Notes: a model not told the origin generated them from the sequence alone. Positions 46,340-63,289 are shown, counted from the first letter of the stretch. The stretch: DNA of 64,000 bases from a virus (IMGVR_UViG_3300021426_000063:128001-192000); one strand, 5' to 3'. A program made the numbers and translations.

Positions 46340-47473
46340 TTAGATAAGCATTGCATCAAACTCATCATCAGAGAAACATTTTTCTATCTCATCAATATTG
46401 AAAAGGTTCTTCTTCTGAAGGTCATTGACATCTTTTATTGTTTCCTTGGTATTGATTGTTTTGAGATATTGTCCCCATAGGAACACAGGTTTGTGTTCTT
46501 TGAGTTTCTTCAATGATTTCTCTCTTCCAGTCTTGTCATTGTCAAACAGATATCTCACAGTCTCCACCTCATCAAAGAATCCATCCAGATGCTTGGCAGC
46601 ACTCTGTAAGGCAATGGAGTTCGCTATCGCAAGTGAATCAATAGGACCCTCCATAATGGTGAGAGGTTGACTCATATTGACATTCATAATATTGAAAAGA
46701 CCGGACAGTCTGTCAAGATTGGCCACAATGTTCTCAATACCATCCTCTTCATCAATGTACTTCTGACCAAGTGGTTCTTTAAGTAGAAGTCTTTCTACAA
46801 TACCATTGATGTCCTTGTTGAACACATCTGAATATATCTTTGTCAATCTACTTGACATATATCTCTGCTTATTGGATTTAGGATCCAGTTGTCTTATCTG
46901 ATAACCTATCACCCTATCAGATGGAGATATGTTCAGGATATAGAGTTCCATTGTTGAAGGATTGTATGCAAAGTACTTCCAATCCTGGATACCAATCATC
47001 CTTGATTTGAGATAGTTTGATACTTCCTGGTTCTTATAAGGAGAGATGATTCCCAGTTGTTTGAAGAGTATCATCTTTGGTATTGCCAGTTTATCAAGGA
47101 GAGTCATTGACATTGATGCCTGGTTTCCTGATACTTTCCTCTCAAACTTCTTTGCATTCTGTTGGATTTCATGGATAACAACCCTATCATCAATGGACAG
47201 TTCTTCACCAAAGTCTGAAAGAAGTCTATTTACACCAGTAGAGTGTGAGCAATTGAAACAATGATACCTGAGAGAATCAAGATAAAGGTTTCCTCTCTTC
47301 TTTCTTACATCAGTTCTGCTATCATTGCAGTAGACACAAGCAAAGTTAAGTCTATCATGATAGACATCAATCTTTCTTTTGATATAACTATCATTTGCAA
47401 ACTTCTTATTTAATATGTTCTGAATTTTACCTTTGATATTTTCAATGGTTGTATTCTCTGAATCTGTCATCAT
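46340..47473 (-). CDS. T4 gp61-like DNA primase
   Basis: Zn ribbon NFACVYCNDS...RG...YHCFNC; TOPRIM MEGPIDS, FDND, KDVND; start re-called at ATG 47473. Confidence 0.88.
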   Translation of the reverse strand: MMTDSENTTIENIKGKIQNILNKKFANDSYIKRKIDVYHDRLNFACVYCNDSRTDVRKKRGNLYLDSLRYHCFNCSHSTGVNRLLSDFGEELSIDDRVVIHEIQQNAKKFERKVSGNQASMSMTLLDKLAIPKMILFKQLGIISPYKNQEVSNYLKSRMIGIQDWKYFAYNPSTMELYILNISPSDRVIGYQIRQLDPKSNKQRYMSSRLTKIYSDVFNKDINGIVERLLLKEPLGQKYIDEEDGIENIVANLDRLSGLFNIMNVNMSQPLTIMEGPIDSLAIANSIALQSAAKHLDGFFDEVETVRYLFDNDKTGREKSLKKLKEHKPVFLWGQYLKTINTKETIKDVNDLQKKNLFNIDEIEKCFSDDEFDAMLI

Positions 47474-47708
47474 AAACTGAATCATAAATGTCCTGGAGAC
47501 TAAACTGACCATACTTGGAATGAAGTTCAGACATCATTCCATCTTCTTTCTCTTTGATTGATTTCAAGGTTTTTTCAAGTTCAATGACCTTATCTTGAAT
47601 CTCTTCTGCTTTCTTTTGATATACAAACAGTTCTTCAGAGACATTCCTGTACTCTTCAACAATGTCTCTGATTTCTTTTGATTCCTGTTCTGTGAAGTTA
47701 ATCTTCAT
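47442..47708 (-). CDS. Small coiled-coil protein
   Basis: 88 aa, heptad pattern ending ...L..KYG. Confidence 0.65.
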   Translation of the reverse strand: MKINFTEQESKEIRDIVEEYRNVSEELFVYQKKAEEIQDKVIELEKTLKSIKEKEDGMMSELHSKYGQFSLQDIYDSVYDDRFREYNH

Positions 47709-47970
47709 CTTTTACAATCTTTGCAAAAACAAATCCTTCCTTTATACAATCATATTTTACACCATCTATCTTGATTGGTGTTGACCTGCCAATAGGTTTT
47801 ACAATGATGTCACCTTCTTTGAGTATTGAACCATCATATACTTTCAACACCCTGGCAAATCTGTTGTATTGTTCATCTGGTATATATAAACCAGATTTAG
47901 TTATATTCTCATTCTTTATGTCCTGGATGAGTATATAACCATTCTTCATTTCTATTGGTATGTTATTCAT
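47698..47970 (-). CDS. GroES-like co-chaperonin
   Basis: Mobile loop TKSGLYIP, LKEGD.IV, IKIDG.KY..I.E..V.AKI. Confidence 0.75.
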   Translation of the reverse strand: MNNIPIEMKNGYILIQDIKNENITKSGLYIPDEQYNRFARVLKVYDGSILKEGDIIVKPIGRSTPIKIDGVKYDCIKEGFVFAKIVKDED

Positions 47971-48126
47971 ATTGTAAATATAACAAAAGACAATAACTTC
48001 TAAAAAAACATAATTTATTAATTGAAAAATATGTATTGAAAGTCCTAATATATTAGATATGTTGTTTTATAAAGATACTTATTTGTACTATTGTACATAA
48101 ATATTATATAAAAAAGTAAAGTTTAT

Positions 48127-48669
48127 ATGAATTATTATATAGCATTGGAGATGGTAGGATATTCATCTGTGAGTAGTTTCTTGAGTAGTCTTGGTGAAAA
48201 ACCAACATATGGTACTTGTGAAGATTTTTCAGATCCTTTTAATAGTTATACACCTGATAGCCAATTTCACAGTAGAAATACTGGTTCTAGTACTGGTCAA
48301 TGGTATCCATCTCCAAAATCCTATAGTGGAACAACATATGCATTATATAGAATTGATGGATATGAATTAGATAATTTTGATATAGGAACTCTTGCTGCCC
48401 GAGATGATATTCATAGTTCTCTTTGGTTATATGTGAATGATAGTGGTGCAAGTGGTGATCAGATAGTATATCTCAATAAATATGTTGCACCAACTTTAAC
48501 ATCTATATCAATTAAGATTGGAGGTTCATATGTGTCATCAAGTACAAGTATAAAGGTAGGTGAACAAAAGGAAATACAAATAATTGGAAATTACAGTAAT
48601 GGTGAGACTAGGAATATCACTACTTCTGCATCATTGACACGTAGTAATACAAATATAAGTATTGTATAA
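48127..48669 (+). CDS. Unique domain + N-terminal part of a Big_2 Ig-like domain (candidate fibre tip A)
   Basis: C-terminus TLTSISIKIGG...SIKVGEQKEIQIIGNYSNGETRNITTSASLTRSNTNISIV*; own CATAAATA (48096-48103) and terminator. Confidence 0.75.
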   Translation: MNYYIALEMVGYSSVSSFLSSLGEKPTYGTCEDFSDPFNSYTPDSQFHSRNTGSSTGQWYPSPKSYSGTTYALYRIDGYELDNFDIGTLAARDDIHSSLWLYVNDSGASGDQIVYLNKYVAPTLTSISIKIGGSYVSSSTSIKVGEQKEIQIIGNYSNGETRNITTSASLTRSNTNISIV

Positions 48670-48673
48670 ATTA

Positions 48674-48702
48674 AGGACTTCTTTTTAGAAGTCTTTTTTT
48701 TT
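48674..48702 (+). terminator. Intrinsic terminator
   Basis: GACTTCT-tttt-AGAAGTC followed by a T9 run. Confidence 0.85.
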
Positions 48703-48767
48703 ATCCAGAAAATTCCAAATGATATTGCATAAATAACATATATTTAATAATTAGATTGTTTAGAGTT

Positions 48768-49274
48768 ATGGCAGCAGGAAGTGTTATTTGTGTTGAATCA
48801 AGTACAAGTTATATAAATACATTCAGAAATTCATATGGCAGTAATTTGACAGTGTATAATGGTGATGCTATAATTTATAATGTACCTACTAATGAATGGA
48901 TAAAAATTAAAACATTTAATAATAAATATTATGCTTGTGCTTATGTTGGTAGATTTGTAGGATCTTCAGCAAATTTAAATGTTATAAATTCTGGGTCTAA
49001 TACACCTAAAAAATGGGTATATGATACAAGTACAAGTATAGTTGACCCAGATTTTCAGGGAGGTATGACAATTACAGCATATTTATTAAAAGAATATGTC
49101 CCTGCTGTTACATCTATTTCAGTTACAGTAGGAGGTTCATCTGGAAGTACATCAGTTAAGGTAGATGAGCAAAAGGAGATTGTGGTTACAGCAAATTATG
49201 ATGATGGTTCTACTTCTACTGTAACACATAGTGCAACATTGACACCTAGTAATTCAAATATAAGTATTGTATAA
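48768..49274 (+). CDS. Unique domain + N-terminal part of a Big_2 Ig-like domain (candidate fibre tip B)
   Basis: C-terminus AVTSISVTVGG...SVKVDEQKEIVVTANYDDGSTSTVTHSATLTPSNSNISIV*; own CATAAATA (48728-48735) and terminator; start re-called at ATG 48768. Confidence 0.75.
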   Translation: MAAGSVICVESSTSYINTFRNSYGSNLTVYNGDAIIYNVPTNEWIKIKTFNNKYYACAYVGRFVGSSANLNVINSGSNTPKKWVYDTSTSIVDPDFQGGMTITAYLLKEYVPAVTSISVTVGGSSGSTSVKVDEQKEIVVTANYDDGSTSTVTHSATLTPSNSNISIV

Positions 49275-49296
49275 AAATCTTAATTATAATATATAT

Positions 49297-49330
49297 AAAT
49301 GACCTGTCTTATTTGACTGGTCATTTTTTT
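49297..49330 (+). terminator. Intrinsic terminator
   Basis: AAATGACC..GTC-loop-GAC..GGTCATTT followed by a T run. Confidence 0.75.
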
Positions 49331-49375
49331 ATTTCCCATAAATAACTTATATGAAAATAACATAAGTATATAGAT

Positions 49376-49597
49376 ATGGAAAATGACATTCAAACAATTT
49401 CCTATATCAATTTGGGAGATGGTCAGGAACACCCAATAGATGCTGTTTCAGTTGGTGGAAAACTTGGTGAAAATATCCAGGTGACCAATAATCTTGTTAC
49501 ATCTGTGAATTCAAGTTCATCAGATACACAATATCCATCTGCAAAATGTGTATATACATTGATAGGTGATATAGAAACTCTTTTGAGTAATATTTAA
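49376..49597 (+). CDS. Small fibre-associated protein
   Basis: 73 aa with SSDTQYPSAKCVY, a motif seen in phage fibre proteins; first gene after CATAAATA (49337-49344). Confidence 0.65.
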   Translation: MENDIQTISYINLGDGQEHPIDAVSVGGKLGENIQVTNNLVTSVNSSSSDTQYPSAKCVYTLIGDIETLLSNI

Positions 49598-49614
49598 AAA
49601 AAATGATTTAATTT

Positions 49615-52600
49615 ATGGCAAAATATGTAAAGGGTTTAAATGCTGGTTCCTCAACATTGACTGCAACATATTCAGGTAAAACTGCTAGTATTAATATAAC
49701 AGTTAATAAGGGTGCTGGAACTTTAGGTAGTGCTGATGCATTATCTGACCATGAATATCGTACAGGTCCACATACATATACATTAACAGTTACAGGAGCA
49801 TCAGGAAGTGTATCATTTAACACAAGTTCATCATATTTAACTGTTACAAAAGATGGAAGTTCTTATAATAAATCTGGATGGTCAGTTACATCTACTGGAG
49901 GTCTTGCAACTGCTGCTTCAATAAATGCTGGTACATATACAGTTAAGTGTTATGTTACATCTGCTGCAACCACTAATTATAATTCAGTATCTGGATATTT
50001 AACTTGGACATTTAAAATTACAAAAGCCACACCAACCTGTTCAATATCAATACCTGATTATACATATGGTGGAACAAAATCTAATTATAATTTCTCTGCT
50101 AATATGGGTGTTGGAAGTGTTGATGTATATCTTAACTCAACCAATTCAACATCTGGTGGAACATTGTGGGGTAATGCAACATCTACAACATTGAATGCTG
50201 GTACAAGATATATATATGCAATTGTTGGTGCTGGAACAAATACAAATGCAGTTACTGTTGGACCAACTGCTTTTACAATCAGTAAAGCTAGTCAGTCTGC
50301 TCCAACTGCATCAGGTAATTCAAGTACATATTCAACATCTGGTTCAATTAGTGGTAGTGCATCAGGAGGTGGAGGTGTTGGTACACTTTATTATAAGGCA
50401 GATACATCAGGTGGAACAAGTTATGGTACAGCTGCAACATCTGTATCAAGGTCAAGGTCTTCTGTTGGTACAACAACCTTTGTTGCTTACTGGAGTGGTA
50501 ATGATAACTATAATGCATCACCAAATTCAAATCAAGCAAGTCTTGTTATTGGTAAAGCAGATCAGTCTGCTCCAACAGCATATGGAGATACAAAATCATA
50601 TGGTTCAACAGCAACTGCAACAACATCTGGTGGTGGCGGTCAGGGTTCTATTGAATGGTCTAATGGTAGTACAAGAACAGATGTTGGTTCACAGACAACA
50701 AAAGCAAGATGGTCTGGTAACAGTAATTATAATGCATCAGGTTGGTCTAATGAGGTAACACTTAAAATCAACAAAGCAGATCAGTCTGCTCCAACACCAA
50801 AAGGATCATCAAGTACTTATTCATCATCTGGTTCAATTAGTGGTAGTGCATCAGGAGGTGGAGGTCATGGTTCACTTTATTATAAGGTTGATACATCAGG
50901 TGGAACCAGTTATGGTTCTGCAACAACTACTGCACCTTCAAGAAATAGGAACTCTGTTGGTACAACCACTTTTGTTGCTTACTGGGGTGGTGATGGTAAC
51001 TATAATGCATCACCTAATTCAAGTCAGGCAAGTCTTGTTATTGATAGAGCAGGTCAGCCTGCTCCAACTGCAACAGGTTCATCAGTAACATATCCTAATA
51101 CTGCAACTGCATCATATTCAGGTGGTGGAGGTGTTGGTACGCTTACTTGGACAAATGGTAGTTCAAGATCTGCAATTGGTTCACAGACAACAAAGGCATA
51201 TTGGAGTGGTAATGGTAATTATTATGCTTCTGGATATTCTAATGAAGTAACACTTTCTGTATCTAAATATACACCAACCATTTCTTTGTCTGCAACAGAT
51301 AGGATATATAATGGTAATGCCCTTTATGCAACAGCAACAGTATCTGTTCCTTCTGGTGGTAAAACTATGAAAGGTACTATTTATTATGGTACATCTTCTG
51401 GTTCAACATCATATAGTGTATCCTATAGTGGTTCTGCTGTATCATTGAGTTCAGTGAGTGTAACTAACTATAATAGTGGTTCTGGTAATTCAGTAACTGT
51501 ATTTGCTTACTTTGTACCTGACAGTACTTGTAATGATGTATATAATAGTTCAGGCAATGCAAGTAAGACTATGACCATTACTGGTCCTACAAGTCAGTCT
51601 GCTCCAACAGCAACAGGTGCTTCTTCTCAATATGCAACATCTGGTTCAATTAGTGGTAGTGCATCAGGTGGTGGTGGGCATGGTACACTTTATTATAAGG
51701 CAGATACTAATGGAGGAACAAGTTATGGTTCTGCTGCAACATCTGTATCAAGGTCAAAGAGTTCTTTGGGTACAACAACCTTTGTTGCTTACTGGGGTGG
51801 TGATGGTAACTATAATGCATCAGGTAATTCTAACCAGGCAAGTCTTACTGTTGTAAAGGCAGATCAATCTGCTCCAACAGCAACCGGTTCATCAGTAACT
51901 TATCCTAGTACTGCAACTGCTTCTGCATCTGGTGGAGGCGGTCAGGGTTCTATTGAGTGGTATAATGGTAGTTCAAGGTCTGCCATTGGTTCACAGACAA
52001 CAAAGGCAAGATGGTCTGGAAATACATATTATAATGCATCTGGATATTCTATTGAGGTAACTCTTTCAGTTGCAAAATATACACCAACTGTTACATTGTC
52101 TGCAACAGATAGAGCATACAATGGTAATGCTTTATATGCATCAGCAACAGTATCTGTACCATCAGGAGGTAAGACAATGAAAGGTACAATATACTATGGT
52201 ACATCTTCTGGTTCAACATCATATAGTGTATCATATAGTGGTTCTTCTGTATCATTGAGTTCAGTAAGTGTAACTAATGTTGGTTCAGCAACAGTATATG
52301 CTTACTTTGTACCTGACAGTACTTGTAATGATGTATACAATAGTTCAGGTAATGTAAGTAAGACATTTACTGTTAGAAAGGCTGATCAGGATGCTCCAAC
52401 AGCAACTGGTTCATCAGTTACTTATCCTAGTACTGCTACTGCTTCCGCTTCAGGTGGAGGTGGTCAGGGTTCTATTGAATGGTATAATGGTTCATCAAGA
52501 AGTTCTGTTGGTTCACAGACAACAAAAGCAAGATGGTCTGGTAACAGTAATTATAATGCATCAGGTTATTCTAATGAAGTAACTCTTTCAGTTGCTAAAT

Positions 52601-55600
52601 ATACACCTTCTGTAACATTGAGTGTAACTGATAGGAAGTATAATGGAAATGCACTTTATGCAACAGCAACTGTATCAGGTGCATCTGGTGGTGCAACTCC
52701 AAAGGGAACTATTTATTATGGTACAAGTTCAGGTTCAACATCATATAGTGTTTCATATACTGGTTCTTCTGTATTATTGAGTTCAGTGAGTGTAACTAAT
52801 GTTGGTTCAGCAACAGTATATGCTTACTTTACACCAGATTCTACTTGTAGTGGTGTCTATAATAACTCTGGTAGTGCAAGTAAGACATTTACTGTTAGTA
52901 AGGCTGACCAATCTGCTCCAACAGCAACAGGTGCAACAGTTACTTATCCTAGTACTGCTACTGCTACTGCTACAGGTGGTGGTGGTCAAGGTACACTTAC
53001 TTGGACTAATGGAGATACACAAAGTGGTGCTGGTTCAAAAACAACAAAGGCTTACTGGGCTGGTAACAGTAATTATAATGCATCAGGTTATTCTAATGAA
53101 GTAACACTTAAAGTTAACAAGGCTGCTGGTTCTACTGGTGTATCAACATCAGCAATGTCAATTACTTATAGTACAACATCTGCAACAAGAACAGTATCTG
53201 GAAATACAAATACTGTATCTGTTTCTTCAAGTAATGAAAATATTGCTACTGTATCAATTTCTGGTTCAACTATTACAGTAAACAGAATTGGTTATGGTAG
53301 TGCAACCATAACTGCTTCTGTTGATGCTGCTACTAATTATGAGGCAGCAACATCATCATTCACAGTTACTAATTACAAGGCTGCTGGTAGTGTTAAGACT
53401 GCACCAGCCAATAATGGTGCAACATATGGTTCAGGAAGTTATTTGTGTACAACAGGTGCTTCTGATACAGGTACAATGTATTATAGACTTGGTACAAGTG
53501 GAAGTTATAGTACAACAAGACCAACAACAAGTGGACTCAATGTTGGTTCATATACATTGTATTACTATGCTGCTGAATCAACTAATTACTATGCAACAAG
53601 TGCTGCATCTATTACAGTTACAGTTGTACAGGCAAATGGTTCAGTTGCTGGTAATGTTACTGATAGAACATATAATACTTCAGGTCAGACTGTAGGTACA
53701 CTTACATCTGCAACTGGTGATTATTATCTTGGATTTGGTAGTTCAACATCTTCTGGTCCATCATCTTGGGGAACAAAGAATGTTAATACTATTTCTGCAA
53801 CAACAGCAGGAACATATTATGTTTGGGCAAAATGTGATGCTTCTACAAATTATAAAGCTGTTGGTGCGACATACATTGGAAAAGCAATAATAAGTAGGGC
53901 ATCAACCAATGCTCCTGTTCTTGTTGCCGGTGGTACAACAACATATACAGGTTCAACCTATTATGCTACTGCTGCCAATGGTAGTGGTAACCCTTCTGGT
54001 ACAATCAAGTATGGTGCAACATCAGGTGCTTCTACTTACAGTATGACAGCAGGTACTGCTGCTAATATGACAAGTATGGGTAGAAGTGATGTTGGTACAA
54101 CAACCATCTATGCCTTCTTCCAACCAACAGATACAACCAACTATTCTAATTCTGGTGTTGCATCAACAACTGTAACCATTACTAAACCAGCAGGTGGTTC
54201 AGGTAGTGTAACAATGTCAGGTTGGACATATGGTGGAACAGTAACTAACCCTAATCCATCATCAAGTACTAATGGTACAAGTAATGTATCTTACACCTGG
54301 TATGATTCTGGAAAGACAGCTTTGTCATCAAAACCAGGTTCTACTTCAACAGCAGGAACATATTATGTAAAGGCAACCTTTGCTGCCACTACAAACTATA
54401 CAGAATACACAACTGATTATGTATCATTCACAATCAGTAAGGCTACTGGTTCAGGTAGTGTAACAATGTCAGGTTGGACATATGGAGGTACTGTAACAAA
54501 TCCATCACCATCATCAAGTACTAATGGTACAAGTAATGTATCTTACACCTGGTACAATTCAAGTAAGACAGAGTTGTCAAGTAAGCCAGGATCCAACTCA
54601 ACAGCAGGAACATATTATGTAAGGGCAACCTTTGCAGCAACAGCAAACTACAATGCTGTGACAACAGATTATGTATCATTCCCAATCAGCAAGGCAGCAG
54701 GTACTCTTTCAGGTAGTACAACTAATAGTACATATAATGGTTCAGGACAGGTTATTGGTACAATAACATCTACCACAGGTACATACTATCTTGGATTTGG
54801 TAGTTCTGCCACATCTGGTCCATCATCTTGGGGTTCAGCAAATACATCACTTTCAGCAACCAATGCCGGAACATATTATGTATGGGCATACTGTGATGCT
54901 TCAACTAACTATAATGGTGTTGGTTCAAAGTACATTGGTCCAGCAACAATATCACAGAAGTCAGTTACAGTCACAGCAGCATCAGATTCAAAGGTATATA
55001 ATGGTACTGCATTGACAAACAATACTGCATCCATCAGTGGTCAGGTGAGTGGTCATACACTTAACTCTGTAACGGTAACAGGTTCACAGACAAATGTTGG
55101 TTCATCTTCCAATGTACCAAGTGGTGCAAAGATTTATTCTGGTTCAACAGATGTTACAAGTAATTATAGTATTACTTATACAAATGGTACATTGACTGTT
55201 TCAAATGCAACCATCACAGTATCTGCACCTAACCAGAGTTATACATATACTGGTTCAGCACAGGGTAATGCCATTACAGTAACAACTGTTAACAGTCAGA
55301 CAGCAACCATCAAGTATGGTACAACATCTGGTACATACAATTTGACATCAGCACCACAGATAACCAATGTTGCTGAATCAAAGACTATCTACTATAAGGT
55401 AACTGCACCTAACCATGCTGATAAGACAGGTTCTTATACATTGACTATAACCAACAAATCAATCTCTATACCTACTCCAACAAGTGTATCAAAGACCTAT
55501 GACAGGACAGCATACAGTGCAACCTTTGGTGCTGCAACTGGTGCAACAATAACCAAGTGGAGATACTCAACAGATAACTCTACTTGGACAGAGACATCAA

Positions 55601-58600
55601 GTGGTAATCCAACACAGACCAATTATGGTACACTTTATGTCCAGGCATATTATTCTGCAAACACAAACTACACAGGTAGTAATTGGTCTGCATCTGCAAC
55701 CATCTCAATAGCAAAGAGGGAGGTAACCCTTACTTGGGGTACACATACTTGGACATATGATGGTGGTGCAAAGACTGTTACTTGTACTGCTGGTAATGTT
55801 GTTTCAGGTGATACTTGTACTGTTACATTAAGTAATCAGAGTAGGACCGCTGCTGGTTCACAGACAGTTACAGCAACAGGTTTGAGTAATTCAAATTATA
55901 AGTTGCCATCATCTACTACAACAACATTGACTATAAACAAGGCTACATTGACTGTTGTTGAGTCAAGTTATAGTGGAACATATGATGGAAACAACCATTC
56001 AAGTACTGTTAAGGTAACAAATTCAGACTGGACAGGTAAGACCATTGTTTATGGTTCAAGTACATCTTATGGTTCAACTGCAACAACTACTGGTACTTAT
56101 AATACAGCATATGCAGTACATACTGCAAAGGATTACACATCATCAATAACTATCTATTATAAGATTACTGGTGATGACAACTATAATGACTTTGCTGACA
56201 GTGTAACCTTCCAGATTGGTAAGGCAACAGGTACACTTACTGGTAGTACATCAAACAAGATATACAATGCATCATCACAGGTTATTGGTACAATATCTTT
56301 CAATACAGGTACATACTATCTTGGTCTTGGTAGTTCAACTACATCAGGTCCATCATCTTGGGGTTCAGCAAATAGTTCACTTTCTGTAAAGGATGCTGGA
56401 ACATACTATGTATGGGCAAAGTGTGATGGTTCAACCAACTACAATGCTGTATCAGCAAAGTACATTGGTCCAGCAACAGTATCACAGAAATCAGTTACAG
56501 TTACTGCCGGTTCAGCAGAGAAGGTATATAATGGTACTGCATTGACCAGTAGTAATGCAACAGCAACTGGTCTTGCAAGTGAGAATCACCATCTACATTC
56601 TTGGACTTGTACTGGTTCACAGACCTATGTTGGTTCCGGTCCTAACACTGCAAGTAATGCCAAGATTTATGAAGGTACTCATAATGGTACAGAGATTGAT
56701 GTAACATCTAATTACAGTATCTCTTACAGTCAGGGTATATTGTCAGTTACAAAGGCAACACCAGTTGTGACAGTTACGGGTGTAACAGCAGACTACACAG
56801 GTGGTTCATTCTATTCAACTGCAAAGGCCAATGCAATTGGTACATTCTATTGGAAGAAGGGTTCTGCACCTACAACATCATCTTATGATGGTAGTGTTGA
56901 GTTGTCTACATTGAACACAGCAACCAATGCTGCTTTTGTAAAGAACAACTCTGATGACTTTGAGATGTTCTGGTTGTTTGTTCCAAGTGGTACAGCAACC
57001 ATTGCATCAGGTCAGACATACTCTGCCAACTTCAGTTCTACATCAAGTGGTAGTTCAGGTGTCAACCTCATCATTAATCCAAGAGATATATCAAAGGTAT
57101 CTGCATCAGTAGCATCAGTCACATACAATGGTTCACAGCAGACTGCATCAGTAAATGTAACTGATACAGCAACCATCACTTCGAGTGATTATACCATCTC
57201 TGGTAATACTGGAACCAATGCTGGTAATTATTCAATCACCATCACAGGTAAGAATAACTACACAGGTACAAAGACCATCACCTGGACAATAAATAAGAAG
57301 TCTGTCACAGTTACAGCTGGTTCAGCATCAAAGGTATATGATGGTACTCCATTGACAAAGACTGATGGTGTAACCACAACAACACTTGGTACTGGAGACC
57401 ATCTCCACTCATTCAAAGTAACTGGTTCAATCACCAATGTTGGTATTGAAAACAATGTATTGAGTGAGATCAAGATTTACAAGGGTACTCATAATGGTAC
57501 AGAAACAGATGCAACAAGTAACTATACCATCACTTCTGAAAATGGTACATTGATTGTTAACAATGCAACAATCACAGTATCTGCACCTAATCAGGAATAC
57601 ATCTATAACGGTTCAGCCCAGGGTGCTGCTATCTCTGCATCTGCTGTTGGTGGTCAGACAGCAACCATCAAGTATGGTACAACAAATGGTTCTTACACAT
57701 TGACAACAGCACCACAGATAACAACTGTTGCTGAATCAAAGACCATATACTATCAGGTGACTGCACCTAACCACACAACAAAGACAGGTTCATACACTCT
57801 TACTATCAAGAAGTTCACAGTCAATGCAACTGCAACCAATCAGTCAAAGACCTATAATGGTACCGCATTGAATGCTGAAAACACAGGTAGTATAGTTGAG
57901 ACTCTTCCTACTGGACATACCATTACTTATAGTTGTACTGGTTCACAGACCAATGTTGGTTCATCTGCCAAGACTTTGTCATCTGTAACTATCAAGAATG
58001 GTTCAGGTACAGATGTGACTGCAAACTTCACAGTCAATAAGAACAATGGTACATTGACAGTTAATGCAGCAACCATCACAGTATCTGCTCCTAAACAGTC
58101 ATACACATATGATGGTAATAAGCATGGTAATGCTATCACAGTAACAACTGTGAACAGTCAGGAAGCAACCATCAAGTATAGTACATCATCAACAGGTACA
58201 TTCACAACAACTGTTCCACAGATTACTAATGTTGCTGAATCAAAGACTATCTACTATCAGGTGACTGCACCTAACCATATTGACAAGAGTGGTTCATATG
58301 AATTGGAGATAACTGAAAAGTCAATCTCTATTCCAGCACCAACTGCAAAGGAAGAGACTTACACAGGTACAGCATATTCAGCATCCTTTGGTTCTGCTAC
58401 TGGTGCAACCATCACCAAGTATCAGTACTCATCAGATAACTCTACTTGGACTGATTCAAACACCAATCCAACCAGGACTGATGCAGGTACAACTTATGTG
58501 AGGGCATACTACACTGCTGGTACTAACTACAAAGGTAGTGGTTGGTCAACTAGTACAACCATCAAGGTTAACAATGCTACAATGACAGTGTCTGCACCTA

Positions 58601-59742
58601 ACCAGAGTTATATGTATAATGGTTCATCTCAGGGTACTGCAATATCTGCTACAACAGTTAACAGTCAGGCCACAACAATCACCTATGGTACAACATCTGG
58701 TTCATATACATTGTCATCTGCTCCAAAGATAACCAATGTATCAGAATCAAAGACTATCTATTATAAGGTGACTGCACCTAACCATAATGATAAGACAGGT
58801 TCATACACATTGACTATCACCCAGAGGGCAATCACCTTCAAGGCTGATGATCAGTCAAAGGTATATGATGGTACTACATTGTCAGCAGAGAACACTGCAA
58901 CAAGAGTCACATCAACAGGTAATGCTCTTGTTTCCGGACACACTGTTGCATTCACCTGTTCAGGTACACAGACAGTAGTTGGTTCATCTGACAAAACCTT
59001 GTCAACTGTAACCATCTATGATGCATCTACCAATAATGTATCTGCTAACTATGCAATCACAAAGAACAAGGGTACATTGACTGTTACAGCAAGGACTGTT
59101 ACATTCACAGAACCTACATTCAACAGTGATACATTGACATACAACAAGTCATCAAAGACTCTTGCTTCTGGTGCAACCTGTTCTGCCGGTGGAGTTATGT
59201 ATTACTATGCATCAACATCATCAACACCTGCTACATTCTCTACAACCACTTGGAGTACTGATTCAGCAAGTGCAGTTAATGCAGGCACATATAATGTATG
59301 GTATTATTGTTATGTAGTAGATACAGATAACAACACAGGTACAGGTATCAACACAGCAAATAAGATGAGTGGTACAAAGACCATTGGTCAGAGGGAGGTA
59401 ACACTTACCTGGGGTACAAGAACATGGACATATGATGGTTCAGCACACTCAACAACCTGTACTGCTGGTAATCTTGTTTCTGGTGATACTTGTACTGTGA
59501 CATTGACTGGAAACTCAATAACAGAGATTGGTTCACAGACTGTGACAGCATCTTCATTGAGTAATCCAAACTACAAGTTACCAAGCAACAACACAGCAAC
59601 CCTTACCATTGAACCAGGTATGTTTGTTAAGTTGAGTGGTTCTTGGACAGTAGTTAAGAAGATATACAAGAAGATATCAGGTCATTGGACAGAACAGTCA
59701 TTTGACTCATTGAGTACAGATGATTTCTATGTCAAGAGATAA
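49615..59742 (+). CDS. Giant Ser/Thr/Gly-rich Ig-like/MBG-repeat virion fibre (3375 aa)
   Basis: Tens of about 70-115-aa beta-sandwich repeats (KA.QSAPTATG, K.YNGT.LT...GSQT.VGSS.N, NAGTYYV.A, NY....GTLTV); C-terminal FVKLSGSW...KKIYKKISGHW motif; no signal peptide. Confidence 0.85.
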   Translation: MAKYVKGLNAGSSTLTATYSGKTASINITVNKGAGTLGSADALSDHEYRTGPHTYTLTVTGASGSVSFNTSSSYLTVTKDGSSYNKSGWSVTSTGGLATAASINAGTYTVKCYVTSAATTNYNSVSGYLTWTFKITKATPTCSISIPDYTYGGTKSNYNFSANMGVGSVDVYLNSTNSTSGGTLWGNATSTTLNAGTRYIYAIVGAGTNTNAVTVGPTAFTISKASQSAPTASGNSSTYSTSGSISGSASGGGGVGTLYYKADTSGGTSYGTAATSVSRSRSSVGTTTFVAYWSGNDNYNASPNSNQASLVIGKADQSAPTAYGDTKSYGSTATATTSGGGGQGSIEWSNGSTRTDVGSQTTKARWSGNSNYNASGWSNEVTLKINKADQSAPTPKGSSSTYSSSGSISGSASGGGGHGSLYYKVDTSGGTSYGSATTTAPSRNRNSVGTTTFVAYWGGDGNYNASPNSSQASLVIDRAGQPAPTATGSSVTYPNTATASYSGGGGVGTLTWTNGSSRSAIGSQTTKAYWSGNGNYYASGYSNEVTLSVSKYTPTISLSATDRIYNGNALYATATVSVPSGGKTMKGTIYYGTSSGSTSYSVSYSGSAVSLSSVSVTNYNSGSGNSVTVFAYFVPDSTCNDVYNSSGNASKTMTITGPTSQSAPTATGASSQYATSGSISGSASGGGGHGTLYYKADTNGGTSYGSAATSVSRSKSSLGTTTFVAYWGGDGNYNASGNSNQASLTVVKADQSAPTATGSSVTYPSTATASASGGGGQGSIEWYNGSSRSAIGSQTTKARWSGNTYYNASGYSIEVTLSVAKYTPTVTLSATDRAYNGNALYASATVSVPSGGKTMKGTIYYGTSSGSTSYSVSYSGSSVSLSSVSVTNVGSATVYAYFVPDSTCNDVYNSSGNVSKTFTVRKADQDAPTATGSSVTYPSTATASASGGGGQGSIEWYNGSSRSSVGSQTTKARWSGNSNYNASGYSNEVTLSVAKYTPSVTLSVTDRKYNGNALYATATVSGASGGATPKGTIYYGTSSGSTSYSVSYTGSSVLLSSVSVTNVGSATVYAYFTPDSTCSGVYNNSGSASKTFTVSKADQSAPTATGATVTYPSTATATATGGGGQGTLTWTNGDTQSGAGSKTTKAYWAGNSNYNASGYSNEVTLKVNKAAGSTGVSTSAMSITYSTTSATRTVSGNTNTVSVSSSNENIATVSISGSTITVNRIGYGSATITASVDAATNYEAATSSFTVTNYKAAGSVKTAPANNGATYGSGSYLCTTGASDTGTMYYRLGTSGSYSTTRPTTSGLNVGSYTLYYYAAESTNYYATSAASITVTVVQANGSVAGNVTDRTYNTSGQTVGTLTSATGDYYLGFGSSTSSGPSSWGTKNVNTISATTAGTYYVWAKCDASTNYKAVGATYIGKAIISRASTNAPVLVAGGTTTYTGSTYYATAANGSGNPSGTIKYGATSGASTYSMTAGTAANMTSMGRSDVGTTTIYAFFQPTDTTNYSNSGVASTTVTITKPAGGSGSVTMSGWTYGGTVTNPNPSSSTNGTSNVSYTWYDSGKTALSSKPGSTSTAGTYYVKATFAATTNYTEYTTDYVSFTISKATGSGSVTMSGWTYGGTVTNPSPSSSTNGTSNVSYTWYNSSKTELSSKPGSNSTAGTYYVRATFAATANYNAVTTDYVSFPISKAAGTLSGSTTNSTYNGSGQVIGTITSTTGTYYLGFGSSATSGPSSWGSANTSLSATNAGTYYVWAYCDASTNYNGVGSKYIGPATISQKSVTVTAASDSKVYNGTALTNNTASISGQVSGHTLNSVTVTGSQTNVGSSSNVPSGAKIYSGSTDVTSNYSITYTNGTLTVSNATITVSAPNQSYTYTGSAQGNAITVTTVNSQTATIKYGTTSGTYNLTSAPQITNVAESKTIYYKVTAPNHADKTGSYTLTITNKSISIPTPTSVSKTYDRTAYSATFGAATGATITKWRYSTDNSTWTETSSGNPTQTNYGTLYVQAYYSANTNYTGSNWSASATISIAKREVTLTWGTHTWTYDGGAKTVTCTAGNVVSGDTCTVTLSNQSRTAAGSQTVTATGLSNSNYKLPSSTTTTLTINKATLTVVESSYSGTYDGNNHSSTVKVTNSDWTGKTIVYGSSTSYGSTATTTGTYNTAYAVHTAKDYTSSITIYYKITGDDNYNDFADSVTFQIGKATGTLTGSTSNKIYNASSQVIGTISFNTGTYYLGLGSSTTSGPSSWGSANSSLSVKDAGTYYVWAKCDGSTNYNAVSAKYIGPATVSQKSVTVTAGSAEKVYNGTALTSSNATATGLASENHHLHSWTCTGSQTYVGSGPNTASNAKIYEGTHNGTEIDVTSNYSISYSQGILSVTKATPVVTVTGVTADYTGGSFYSTAKANAIGTFYWKKGSAPTTSSYDGSVELSTLNTATNAAFVKNNSDDFEMFWLFVPSGTATIASGQTYSANFSSTSSGSSGVNLIINPRDISKVSASVASVTYNGSQQTASVNVTDTATITSSDYTISGNTGTNAGNYSITITGKNNYTGTKTITWTINKKSVTVTAGSASKVYDGTPLTKTDGVTTTTLGTGDHLHSFKVTGSITNVGIENNVLSEIKIYKGTHNGTETDATSNYTITSENGTLIVNNATITVSAPNQEYIYNGSAQGAAISASAVGGQTATIKYGTTNGSYTLTTAPQITTVAESKTIYYQVTAPNHTTKTGSYTLTIKKFTVNATATNQSKTYNGTALNAENTGSIVETLPTGHTITYSCTGSQTNVGSSAKTLSSVTIKNGSGTDVTANFTVNKNNGTLTVNAATITVSAPKQSYTYDGNKHGNAITVTTVNSQEATIKYSTSSTGTFTTTVPQITNVAESKTIYYQVTAPNHIDKSGSYELEITEKSISIPAPTAKEETYTGTAYSASFGSATGATITKYQYSSDNSTWTDSNTNPTRTDAGTTYVRAYYTAGTNYKGSGWSTSTTIKVNNATMTVSAPNQSYMYNGSSQGTAISATTVNSQATTITYGTTSGSYTLSSAPKITNVSESKTIYYKVTAPNHNDKTGSYTLTITQRAITFKADDQSKVYDGTTLSAENTATRVTSTGNALVSGHTVAFTCSGTQTVVGSSDKTLSTVTIYDASTNNVSANYAITKNKGTLTVTARTVTFTEPTFNSDTLTYNKSSKTLASGATCSAGGVMYYYASTSSTPATFSTTTWSTDSASAVNAGTYNVWYYCYVVDTDNNTGTGINTANKMSGTKTIGQREVTLTWGTRTWTYDGSAHSTTCTAGNLVSGDTCTVTLTGNSITEIGSQTVTASSLSNPNYKLPSNNTATLTIEPGMFVKLSGSWTVVKKIYKKISGHWTEQSFDSLSTDDFYVKR
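50281..53120 (+). repeat. Interleaved near-identical intragenic DNA repeats (three unit types)
   Basis: For example tctggttcaattagtggtagtgcatcagg at about 50338, 50827 and 51640; ggttcaacatcatatagtgt at about 51400, 52210 and 52732; ggtcagggttctattga at about 50638, 51940 and 52461. Confidence 0.85.
54196..54700 (+). repeat. 252-bp tandem duplication in fibre gene
   Basis: ggttcaggtagtgtaacaatgtcaggttggacatatgg at 54196 and 54448. Confidence 0.85.
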
Positions 59743-60118: not shown

Positions 60119-62197
60119 ATGGCAAAAACAACCGCTTTAAGTTTTATTGGAACTGCTTCCGAAAACTACATTCAGCAAATCACTGCTCTTGAAGGAACAT
60201 TTGATATTGCCCCAAAACATAAGATTGTATTTTATGATGGTGCTGGTGCTGTTTCAGGTATTGAATGGAATGGTACACAGGATTTGGAAGTTGTAATTCC
60301 TACTATTGCAGATCTTATAAAGGATCCTGTTAAGTTTGCTGGTACTGTTGATGCAGCAGATGGTACTATTACTTGGAAAGAAACAGGTCATACTGCTCAG
60401 ACTGGTGACTTGGTTTATATGACTGTTGATTGTACATTTAACACTATTGCTTGTGAGGCAGGTGATATGGCAATCTATGATGGTAAAAACTGGCATGTTG
60501 TTACTGGTGAGAACCAGGTAACTATCAATGCAACAGCTGCTACTGTTTCAGGTAATGACAATCTATTCTCAATCACAGGTTCAGCAAAGACTCTCCTTAC
60601 TGTTGAAGGTAAGACATTGAGTGTAAAGATTGATTATGCTGATGTAAGAAGTAAACTTGGTCTTGTATTTAATGATGAAGTTAATCGTAGTGTTGATAAT
60701 GCAAAGGTTACTGTTGATACAGTTAAACTTTCTGTTTCAAAAGTTGATGGTACACCTAGTGATATCACAACATCAGTAAGTTTTGATTTACCTACTGCTC
60801 TTGCAGATGGTACAGTTACTATTAATCAGAGTGTTCTCACTAGTGGAGACTTCACATTCGAAAGAGGTGTATTCCCTGCTGTTGTTAAGAATAGTGCATC
60901 AATTAGTGCAGAAGTATCAGGTAATTTGACAATTGGTAAGTCAAGTTTGGAAGATAGTGAAAATGGTGATTATGTTACTACTGTTGATGCTATCAAGGCA
61001 GTTTCATTTGCTCCAGCAACAGCAGCAAGTCATCAGTTTGCTTATGTTGCCAATGTATCAACAAGTGGTTCAAAATCATTTGTAAGTGGTCTTCACACAT
61101 TTGTAGATGGTACTGATGATCCAGCAAAGGCAGACTTCACTGTATATGGTGCTGTAACCGCAGCTGCTGCAAGTAATACATTTGCAACTGGTTGGGATGT
61201 AGAGGCAGCAACTGGTGAAGTTGTTTCATCAATCACTGTTGGTAATGTAACTATTGGTGCATCTAGTGCAAACAATGTTCTTGTAACTGGTCTTTCAGGT
61301 GAAGGTTCAACAGTTGTTACTGATGTAACATTTGGTTCAATCTCATTTGGTGCTGGTACAGACTTTGTAACTGGTCTTGGAAATACAGAGGCAGCAACTG
61401 GTGATGTTGTTACAACTGTTAGTTTTGGTACAACCTCTCTTGTTGAAGATTCAACAGTCACAGCAAAGTCAGCAGCAATTGTAAGTGCAACTGTAAGTAA
61501 TCATGTTCTTTCATTCACAACTGCTGACTTTATGAAACCTGTTAGAGTTGATGTTACTGGTCAGAGTGTTTCAAAGAAGGAATTCACAAAGGGTTCTGCA
61601 ACACTTACTGGTTTCAGCTTTACATCAGATGCATTAACATTTGGAGGTATCAGTCAGGCAGATACAACAATTTCTTACAAGAGTCTTTTGAAAGGTGAGG
61701 TTACTTTGACACAGGATTCTACTTTGTATTATCTTGATAAGGCAGCACAGGATCAGTATGTTGTAGAGATGTCTTATGCTGATTGGTCATTCACAGCAGC
61801 TACTGTATCAAAGAATACTCCTGTACTTAACAATCCAGGTTTGACAGCATACATTCCTGCTAACACAGTTGCTGTTTCTCTTACAGATGGTACATTACCT
61901 TCATTAACAATTGCTGATCCAACTAGTAAACTTACTGCTTCTGTTGGCACAGCATTGTCAACAGAAAAAGTTGCATTCTTGGCTGTTAGTTCTGATAAGA
62001 AGAATATTGCTATTCCTAGTTTCTCATTGGTTTCTGTTTCTGCTGAAGCAGATGGTATCAGTGTTGCTGTTGGAGGTAACTATGCTGTTACTGATGGTAC
62101 AGTTACAATCCTTTCAAATACATTTGTTAAAGGTGTTATGGTTGATGATTCTGCTGTTAGCACATATGTTGCTCCTACTCAAGAACAAGGTAACTAA
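60119..62197 (+). CDS. Tail-fibre-like protein
   Basis: KFAGTV...GDLVY...AGDMAIYDGKNW module common in phage fibres; Thr/Val/Ser-rich beta repeats (EAATG.VV). Confidence 0.6.
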   Translation: MAKTTALSFIGTASENYIQQITALEGTFDIAPKHKIVFYDGAGAVSGIEWNGTQDLEVVIPTIADLIKDPVKFAGTVDAADGTITWKETGHTAQTGDLVYMTVDCTFNTIACEAGDMAIYDGKNWHVVTGENQVTINATAATVSGNDNLFSITGSAKTLLTVEGKTLSVKIDYADVRSKLGLVFNDEVNRSVDNAKVTVDTVKLSVSKVDGTPSDITTSVSFDLPTALADGTVTINQSVLTSGDFTFERGVFPAVVKNSASISAEVSGNLTIGKSSLEDSENGDYVTTVDAIKAVSFAPATAASHQFAYVANVSTSGSKSFVSGLHTFVDGTDDPAKADFTVYGAVTAAAASNTFATGWDVEAATGEVVSSITVGNVTIGASSANNVLVTGLSGEGSTVVTDVTFGSISFGAGTDFVTGLGNTEAATGDVVTTVSFGTTSLVEDSTVTAKSAAIVSATVSNHVLSFTTADFMKPVRVDVTGQSVSKKEFTKGSATLTGFSFTSDALTFGGISQADTTISYKSLLKGEVTLTQDSTLYYLDKAAQDQYVVEMSYADWSFTAATVSKNTPVLNNPGLTAYIPANTVAVSLTDGTLPSLTIADPTSKLTASVGTALSTEKVAFLAVSSDKKNIAIPSFSLVSVSAEADGISVAVGGNYAVTDGTVTILSNTFVKGVMVDDSAVSTYVAPTQEQGN

Positions 62198-62284: not shown

Positions 62285-63289
62285 ATGGAACATAAAAAAC
62301 TTCAATTTTTAGTTCCCCAGTATAAAGAGACAGAAGAAATTATTTCTTTTCTTTTGGATTCCATAGAGTGTCAGGCTTATATTGATAAGAAGGATATAGG
62401 CATGATTATCTGTTCTGATGGTGGACAATATATTCTTGACAGAAAATTCCTTGATAAATACTCTTATGATATTGATTATGTCATCTGTAAGCACAGGGGT
62501 GTATCAGCAACCAGGAACACAGCATTCTTGTTGTCTGATGCAGATTATGTGATGTATTGTGATTCTGATGATGGATTCTGTAACACCTTTGCTCTTAAAA
62601 TCATATTTGAGAATATCAAGATTAGTGAAGATGAAGGAAAACCTTTTGACTTATTGAGTTCCAAGTTCTATTCTGAAAAGACTGTTACAGAGAAAAACAA
62701 GTTATGGGCATTGAGTATTGTTGACCATAATAACATCTATATACACAGTCGGGTTTACAGGAGAGATTTCTTGGTCAAGAATGGTCTTTACTTCAATGAG
62801 AACATCTGGGCCAATGAAGATAGTTTCTTCAATATAACCACCAACTTCTTCTCAAAGAATACAAAGGCATTGAACATTCCAATTTATTGTTGGAGAGGTA
62901 ATCCTTTGTCAGTTACTCATGATCCAAAGTACATAATGAAGACTCTTCATCAATTATTGTATTCCAATGACAGTGTTGTTGAAGTGATGCTGTTATTGAA
63001 TAAAGACAAGAAGGAGATTGCAAAAACAACATTTGATGTGATATGCAAGTTGTATCTGGATATGAACAAACCTTGTTGGTATGAACCGGAGAATGAAGAG
63101 TATAAGGATATTACATTAAAGACATTGAAGTGGTATCTTTTGAAGAGAGGTAAGTTGTGTGAGGTGTTAACTGATGATGAAAAGAAGGAAGTTCTTCAGG
63201 GTGCCAGGAAGACTGAACATTACAAGAACATTGAGAGTATCACATTTAATGATTTTATAAAATGGGTTATTAATTATGAAAAGAAATAG
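62285..63289 (+). CDS. Family 2 glycosyltransferase
   Basis: LVPQYK, SDGG, H.GVSATRN, YVMYCDSDD (DxD), NED..F. Confidence 0.88.
   Translation: MEHKKLQFLVPQYKETEEIISFLLDSIECQAYIDKKDIGMIICSDGGQYILDRKFLDKYSYDIDYVICKHRGVSATRNTAFLLSDADYVMYCDSDDGFCNTFALKIIFENIKISEDEGKPFDLLSSKFYSEKTVTEKNKLWALSIVDHNNIYIHSRVYRRDFLVKNGLYFNENIWANEDSFFNITTNFFSKNTKALNIPIYCWRGNPLSVTHDPKYIMKTLHQLLYSNDSVVEVMLLLNKDKKEIAKTTFDVICKLYLDMNKPCWYEPENEEYKDITLKTLKWYLLKRGKLCEVLTDDEKKEVLQGARKTEHYKNIESITFNDFIKWVINYEKK

Follow-up and report, generated by a model that had tools for sequence, protein, structure and literature searches.

A probable fibre joint in a phage of the ruminant gut: one Big_2 domain divided between a giant fibre and alternative heads

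Chaperone-usher and type V pili are head-to-tail fibres in which incomplete immunoglobulin (Ig)-like subunits are completed by a strand of the next subunit, and the phages G7C and CBA120 have branched systems of receptor-binding proteins. Here, we describe a locus in bases 128001–192000 of a linear, 233,103-base virus record of IMG/VR (IMGVR_UViG_3300021426_000063); this stretch of 64,000 nucleotides (nt) is called the window below. Two small genes of the window, tip1 and tip2, end with the first strands of a Big_2-type Ig domain, and a giant fibre gene close by begins with the last strands of the same domain. We consider it probable that parts of this fibre are joined by completion of the split Big_2 domain in trans, with alternative heads on the fibre N-terminus.

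The nearest solved case to this joint is Tuc2009, in which a C-terminal hairpin of 25 residues from BppU completes a sheet of the C-terminal domain (domain 2) of BppA to form a composite much like an Ig domain of titin (PMC4742702). The likeness lies in an accessory head, there the carbohydrate-binding BppA, with an incomplete C-terminal β-sandwich; in BppA, strands of the carrier complete it (PMC4742702), and in the tips they are predicted to do so. An incomplete C-terminal β-sandwich was also found in the tips, both in the register of a hidden Markov model (HMM) and in the model of tip2. A first-pass annotation of the window, which knew of no description of such an arrangement, therefore went too far in this respect. 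In Tuc2009, nonetheless, the carrier gives a hairpin from its C-terminus, whereas the N-terminus of the carrier in the window would contribute about 30 residues, or three strands, to a domain that is recognisably Big_2; alternative heads for one socket and the serial use along a giant fibre are further differences. The tips and the fibre N-terminus, furthermore, gave no hit to a PHROG or Pfam family, and no sequence relation to BppU or BppA was found. Neither the sharing of one Big_2 domain by alternative heads and a giant fibre nor a serial use of such a split turned up in our literature searches.

Other described systems share single traits with the locus. In pili, the donated part is one strand, and assembly depends on secretion and a chaperone as well as an usher or a protease, whereas about a third of the domain is donated here, the proteins have no leader (the fibre begins directly with the half-domain and the tips with their heads), and the assembly would be cytoplasmic in the infected cell. 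A pilus-type single missing strand was rejected as a description of this locus: the missing part amounts to three strands, about 30 residues, at HMM positions 63–92. G7C, CBA120, and phiKp24 (for phiKp24, PMC9700779) carry several alternative or additional receptor-binding proteins on one carrier through a docking module, but with complete adaptor domains on trimeric proteins instead of the two halves of one domain. In the Pseudomonas podophage A1002, cryo-EM (electron microscopy) has revealed a nozzle in which two gene products share the β-propeller and platform domains and fill in each other's missing strands (PMC13730344); in this case, however, the fold and the role are different, and the pair is a fixed one-to-one pair without alternative partners. 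A Big-type Ig domain is also discontinuous in RTX adhesins such as FrhA and MpIBP, where it projects a ligand-binding domain (PMC10865825), but both halves belong to one polypeptide into which the ligand-binding domain is inserted, while the halves considered here are in different proteins. Finally, cut phage genes whose products reassemble into a working protein are represented by NrdA of Aeromonas phage Aeh1, which was split by a homing endonuclease (Friedrich et al. 2007, cited in PMC3322345), and by split inteins in fractured genes (PMC2677866). In those cases, a mobile element has divided an enzyme a single time; in contrast, the cut in our locus comes without a mobile element or intein and is reused with several partners.

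Two half-domains in register

The three genes are all on the plus strand, and their coordinates and lengths are as the first-pass annotation had them: tip1 at 48127–48669 (180 residues), tip2 at 48768–49274 (168 residues), and the fibre gene at 49615–59742 (3375 residues). The fibre has no leader and is composed of Ig-like and MBG-like repeats (weak matches to MBG_2 and MBG_3), and its open reading frame (ORF) is bounded by an in-frame TAA two codons upstream of the ATG. Relatives of tip1 show 77–93% identity, and those of tip2 are P0008, P0009, and P0019. The two tips can be aligned with each other only over their last 66 residues (58% identity), while their N-terminal parts, a head of no matched fold in tip1 and an unrelated head in tip2, are unalignable, as expected from the earlier claim of unrelated N-terminal domains with a shared Ig end. 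The shared end is the donor half-Ig, namely residues 115–180 of tip1 up to the stop codon (48469–48666) and residues 103–168 of tip2 (49074–49271). Its counterpart, the acceptor half-Ig with the last three Big_2 strands, occupies fibre residues 1–34 (49615–49716).

The register of these halves was examined with a 94-position HMM made from 50 distinct intact repeats, 51 repeats having been found in nine long proteins. These repeats were located with the C-terminal piece of tip2 alone and extended downstream blind to the fibre, and the register test is thus non-circular. Residues 111–167 of tip2 corresponded to HMM positions 5–57 (independent E-value (iE) 1.9e-12), residues 136–179 of tip1 to positions 13–57 (iE 3.8e-9), and residues 4–32 of the window fibre to positions 63–91 (iE 6e-6); the fibre does start with the missing final strands, as had been proposed. 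Overall, the tips cover positions 5–57 or 13–57 and then end (iE 4e-13 to 7e-8), and the fibre N-termini cover positions 63–92 from residue 4 (iE 3e-6 to 6e-6). Donors and acceptors together therefore span the whole Big_2 domain in register (5–57 plus 63–92 of 94), with only a loop of about five positions unmatched between them. The donors stop right after a strand, and the acceptors begin with Met-Ala-Lys or Met-Ala-Thr. When all 1086 ORF ends in the record were searched, the sole matches were the two tip C-termini and the fibre N-terminus.

As to the identity of the domain, three of six intact repeats scored above the cut-off of Pfam Big_2 (PF02368), with 45.5, 48.2, and 26.5 bits against 22.8 bits, and one more was just below it. 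Neither half alone reaches any Pfam cut-off, Big_2 included, which is expected for a part of a domain of about 80 residues. An internal copy in the window fibre near 53206–53340, which the first-pass annotation had taken as intact, turned out to be only a weak partial match (iE 0.19, positions 43–84).

We then consider the predicted structure. The first-pass annotation had suggested predicting the complex of a tip C-terminus with the fibre N-terminus, and ESMFold2 prediction with fibre residues 1–135 and tip2 residues 95–168 gave an ipSAE (interaction prediction score from aligned errors) of 0.86, 0.87, and 0.86, compared with 0.00 for the best of three controls. The predicted complex has 151–152 contacts, a partner pLDDT (predicted local distance difference test) of at least 86, and at least 99% of contacts in agreement between runs; the ipSAE mark is reached by 58 of 80 solved complexes and by 2 of 110 mismatched pairs, a rough calibration since our own alignments were used. 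Fibre residues 1–34 and tip2 residues 114–168 are in the predicted interface, where the strands pair in the normal Ig topology: the last strand of the fibre part lies by the first of the tip, and the first strand of the fibre part by the last of the tip. Such a prediction speaks for compatibility of the modelled halves and for neither affinity nor binding. When each tip was modelled singly with AlphaFold2 (pLDDT 73 and 80), the heads were β-rich, and the last 11 residues of tip2 are unpaired in its single-chain model.

Based upon the complementary register, the prediction of the complex, and the conservation of the cut, purifying selection on the half-Ig of tip1, and maintenance of the ORFs described below, we favour the trans-completion of the Big_2 domain. 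The fibre would be built from separately encoded polypeptides that are joined by rebuilding one Big_2 domain from two halves: a donor protein would end in the first four or so strands, and an acceptor protein would start with the last three strands directly after Met-Ala-Lys, the cut being located in a hairpin loop. The unrelated heads of tip1 and tip2 would be supplied from their own transcription units of one promoter class, and either tip could fill the one acceptor at the N-terminus of the 3375-residue fibre, with the result that heads would be mixed on virions or on fibres. Successive fibre segments of relatives would be chained by this joint as well. We infer that the halves bind in the cell, that ligands are bound by the heads at the distal end, and that the fibre is held on the virion by its conserved C-terminal module. 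The earlier proposal of completion in trans accordingly stands as regards register, conservation, selection, and the modelled complex, while the binding itself is proposed.

The expression signals are also counted in favour of trans-completion, because the same promoter-like motif stands before each of the three units and both tips are followed by terminators. The motif CATAAATA is found at 48096–48103 before tip1, at 48728–48735 before tip2, and at 49337–49344 before the unit of the fibre, i.e., 24–33 nt upstream of tip1, of tip2, and of a 73-residue ORF (P0003; 49376–49597). Terminator-like hairpins lie 3' of tip1 (48673–48705, with a T-run; −12 kcal/mol, z −2.5) and of tip2 (49297–49330, with a U-run; −13.8 kcal/mol, z −5.1), the latter being kept in the relative L001. 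The view that each tip has its own promoter and terminator is thus supported by the motif and the hairpins, but no copy of CATAAATA belongs to the fibre itself, which forms one unit with the 73-residue ORF, which the first-pass annotation did not mention; this ORF is conserved (dN/dS, the ratio of nonsynonymous to synonymous substitution rates, of 0.23–0.56) and always heads the fibre unit. The record has 62 copies of CATAAATA with about 32 expected, and 43 of the 62 have the start of a gene of their own strand 15–70 nt downstream (random positions, 1.6; permuted motifs, 8%), which marks the motif as a real start-proximal signal. Copies of CATAAATA are often found directly after a terminator hairpin. 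The motif probably serves a single temporal class of genes as promoter and is perhaps read by a phage-encoded polymerase.

The same cut in relatives

A small clade of relatives was recovered from metagenome contigs, while no close relative was found in the phage and IMG/VR collections: a phage collection gave no match in blastn with 47000–50500 and tblastn with the fibre C-terminus, nor did IMG/VR with tip1, tip2, and the fibre N-terminus, nor did JGI metagenome contigs with the fibre N-terminus. The tips end at the same residue in L001, L002, L003/L004, L005, and L008, and the acceptor is present in L001, L005, and L008, the other contigs being too short to reach its position. L001 has tip1 (77% identity), tip2, the 73-residue ORF, and a fibre with the same start. 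In L008, tip1, tip2, and the 73-residue ORF are followed by a 550-residue protein ending in a donor half and then by the fibre, the last two genes being 1 nt apart and in different frames. L005 is equipped with a relative of tip2, a third head type (P0010, 146 residues), the 73-residue ORF, and a 518-residue protein with an acceptor half at its start and a donor half at its end; after the codons TAA-TAT-TAA, the next gene opens with another acceptor half. Also, in the distant relative L089, which has the same downstream synteny, three consecutive segments are cut in the same register, and the last one (234 residues) ends in the C-terminal module of the window fibre (53% identity over 136 residues, E 5e-44).

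The cut is therefore kept in every relative found, across four or more unrelated head types; P0010 and the 550-residue protein share the donor-half ending. There are two to three donors per locus, and the number and kind of donor proteins differ between genomes while the cut position is constant. Judging from these sequences, the cut appears to be a reusable general connector, also between successive fibre segments (L005, L008, and L089). The first-pass annotation had assigned it a role only as the socket for tips and missed the joining of fibre segments; of the searches that it suggested in related phages, the one for further ORFs with donor ends yielded P0010 and the 550-residue protein, and no fused form was found. 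In the search for a fused head-fibre form, an exhaustive HMMER search with tip2 gave long proteins matched only via the Ig half, a search for longer proteins with tip1 gave none, which is weak evidence, and a search for shorter proteins with fibre residues 1–135 gave only the 518-residue protein of L005 and P0026, both of which start with an acceptor half. The lack of a fused form of either head is counted for trans-completion. A comparison of fused and split forms at one homologous position was tried with the second segment of L005 and rejected; this segment corresponds to about residue 1165 with 35% identity in a repeat-rich part, and the donor end of the 518-residue protein has no alignment to the window fibre.

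L006 and L007 are more distant, and their tip2-like gene (36% identity) is inverted relative to the tip1-like gene. In L006 (3–985), the tip2-like gene points to GroES-like and primase genes and is back to back with the tip1-like gene. This inversion suggests that tip genes can move or flip independently of the fibre, and it also excludes any read-through model. The latter bears upon the possibility that the halves are joined as DNA, as RNA, or in translation to give one polypeptide, be it by deletion or inversion, splicing, bypass, read-through, or a split intein. In its favour, the last 40 or so nt of tip1 and tip2 (48629–48669 and 49234–49274) are nearly identical, with three nonsynonymous and zero synonymous differences in the last 13 codons, which could mark a recombination site. 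Nonetheless, we regard a single polypeptide as highly improbable. The tips are separated from the fibre by gaps of 945 nt (tip1) and 340 nt (tip2) with another gene between, and terminators and the promoter motif also lie between the parts; there are several in-frame TAA codons at the junctions in L005 and L089 and a change of frame at that in L008; an Rfam search gave zero introns; and zero intein residues flank the cut. No joint between a tip and the fibre was present among contigs of four runs. Indeed, a contig of the source sample is identical over 47600–50362, a 620-nt contig of a relative from another study runs from the end of tip2 to the fibre start, and a 207-nt contig of an RNA library is collinear across the end of P0003 and the fibre start.

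A mechanism at the DNA level was not supported, either. When the record, which is 62% complete, was scanned for RVT_1, Phage_integrase, and Resolvase, zero matches were obtained, so that neither a reverse transcriptase nor a recombinase of the tyrosine or serine type is present in it; neither long inverted repeats nor rearranged contigs were found. A shufflon, an invertible cassette, and a diversity-generating retroelement were rejected on these grounds, as was a split intein, for which there is no N-fragment after the donors and no C-fragment before the acceptors.

Selection, sequence exchange, and orientation of the fibre

In tip1, the half-Ig has a dN/dS of 0.10–0.65, compared with 0.95–2.1 for the head. 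Compared with the head, the half-Ig has far less nonsynonymous change (Fisher p 1e-9 and 9e-6), while the two parts show no difference in synonymous change (p 0.36 and 0.48). Furthermore, the tip1 head (342 nt, five sequences) has accumulated at least 107 substitutions with zero stops and zero indels, whereas only 0.8% of simulations with as many random changes were stop-free. The tip1 gene is closed by TAA in the window but by TGA in four relatives, the position of the stop codon being unchanged. These results suggest that the heads are maintained, fast-changing proteins and that the half-domain is constrained.

Several points nonetheless weigh against trans-completion of the kind proposed. 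The dN/dS of the heads is not significantly above 1 (p 0.07 and 0.37), leaving diversifying selection unproven, and in the comparison of tip2 with L001, the head and the half-Ig show no difference in nonsynonymous change (p 0.88). No RNA contigs were found over the tips in the contig-level data. The complex prediction may pass because the joined halves resemble a solved fold. On its own, a half-Ig whose core is open should have a poor solubility, and no chaperone was identified, although no search aimed at one was made. As the record is 62% complete, more donors or acceptors may exist. Also, the heads had no match in the PDB by Foldseek at E ≤ 0.001; in addition, the best Z score in the wide mode of VIA-align was 5.0, the level of noise, and zero Pfam or PHROG families and zero Atlas neighbours were found for them. 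In terms of the heads, therefore, the earlier idea that they are interchangeable is in keeping with two to three donors per locus, but receptor or glycan binding gained no support from folds or families.

Some of these observations would also suit tolerated debris; the tips would then be remnants from the 5' parts of replaced fibre genes, or have another partner (e.g., each other), and the fibre N-terminus would be merely ragged. The dN/dS of the heads near or above 1 and the lack of RNA contigs over the tips would be consistent with this, and mosaic tips in other samples point to frequent recombination at the locus. Debris would hardly explain, however, why the same break point recurs in at least six unrelated contexts and in a distant relative, why the stop codon is replaced at the same codon, why the half-Ig is under purifying selection, and why at least 107 substitutions have left the ORFs open. 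In addition, the tips have their own promoter-like motifs and terminators, and the halves in L005 and L008 are separated by nothing but a stop and a start. We thus find debris quite unlikely, and the claim of the first-pass annotation that the small genes are maintained is upheld by the conserved cut, the changed stop codon, the constrained half-Ig of tip1, and the open ORFs.

Apart from the question of maintenance, there are signs of sequence exchange at the locus. The head of tip2 is strongly diverged from that of L008 at synonymous sites too, which points to recombination. In DNA, the end of tip2 in the window nearly matches the end of tip1 of L001 rather than that of tip2 of L001, with 2 differences in the last 33 nt, one of which is in the stop codon, and a contig in the run X2 is a mosaic of tip2-like and tip1-like halves. 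In sequence terms, this pattern points to gene conversion or cassette exchange in the coding region of the donor half. The first full domain of the fibre, residues 35–135 (49717–50019), has a dN/dS of 1.4–1.8 against three relatives and is hence as fast as the heads. A broader proposal, which we hold tentatively and as something less than an even chance, is that the split Big_2 halves are a general plug-and-socket code in this clade: any donor would fit any acceptor, particles would carry mixed heads as bet-hedging at the protein level without change of DNA, and the DNA of the donor half would double as a recombination anchor for the trading of heads.

The orientation of the fibre is a further matter. 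The N-terminus is proximal in many tail fibres, as in gp34–gp37 of T4. The same joint might work with the opposite polarity, the small proteins being virion-proximal adaptors to different sites and the C-terminus of the fibre being free; a module of the P0003 type, furthermore, is normally C-terminal with a separate gene downstream, and this suggests N-to-C chaining in gene order. Adaptors to conserved parts of the virion should be conserved, however, whereas the heads change fastest and are of at least four unrelated types. In the distant relative L089, moreover, the C-terminal 136 residues of the fibre are the sole collinear conserved part. An anchor at the C-terminus also has a precedent in Hoc of T4, which has a C-terminal capsid anchor and Ig domains directed outward (PMC10385173). 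The opposite polarity is thus unlikely in our view, and we keep to the reading with distal heads. The conserved C-terminal module of the window fibre, residues 3241–3375 (59335–59739), is a candidate virion anchor; of the earlier claim on this C-terminal motif, collinear conservation is observed, and the anchoring role is a guess.

Surroundings of the locus and significance

The source virus is a giant phage of the ruminant gut. Contigs with this stretch or close relatives were contributed by 12 studies on the gut metagenomes of cattle, goats, and other animals. The record has a G+C content of 35% and a completeness estimate of 62% by CheckV, and 96% of it is coding under the standard code. 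The neighbours of the tip/fibre locus include a primase, a GroES-like co-chaperonin, an HNH protein, and an ATPase.

Downstream of the fibre, a 692-residue protein outside any known family is encoded at 60119–62197 (46% identity and the same synteny in L089), which from its position may be a structural partner of the fibre. The gene at 62285–63289, two genes past the Ser/Thr-rich fibre, encodes a family 2 glycosyltransferase (Pfam E 2.5e-6), and its identity of 83% to the copy in L089 is far above the conservation of its neighbours; this enzyme may glycosylate the fibre.

The C-terminal 40 or so residues of the 73-residue ORF, furthermore, are a module (STDTQYPSAKC.Y...ETLLS.I, then stop) present in 109 IMG/VR stretches. 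It is usually the extreme C-terminus of gut-phage proteins of 160–800 residues, and the next gene follows 1–20 nt downstream with the typical start MSIASEI.RLQ.AK. By sequence, the module looks like the mark of a second conserved gene-boundary junction in fibre operons of gut phages; zero half-domain ends were found in the 80 IMG/VR loci with this module that were examined (L009–L088).

If the joint works as we read it, this clade would have a natural, non-covalent split-domain connector for different heads and for the piecewise building of a giant fibre. It would then be a third route to variable recognition of hosts or surfaces, beside DNA inversion and diversity-generating retroelements, and would provide an orthogonal protein-joining module for the engineering of phage fibres. 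The same joint would also explain the "partial" end domains of many giant Ig-repeat phage proteins, which annotation pipelines treat as truncations.

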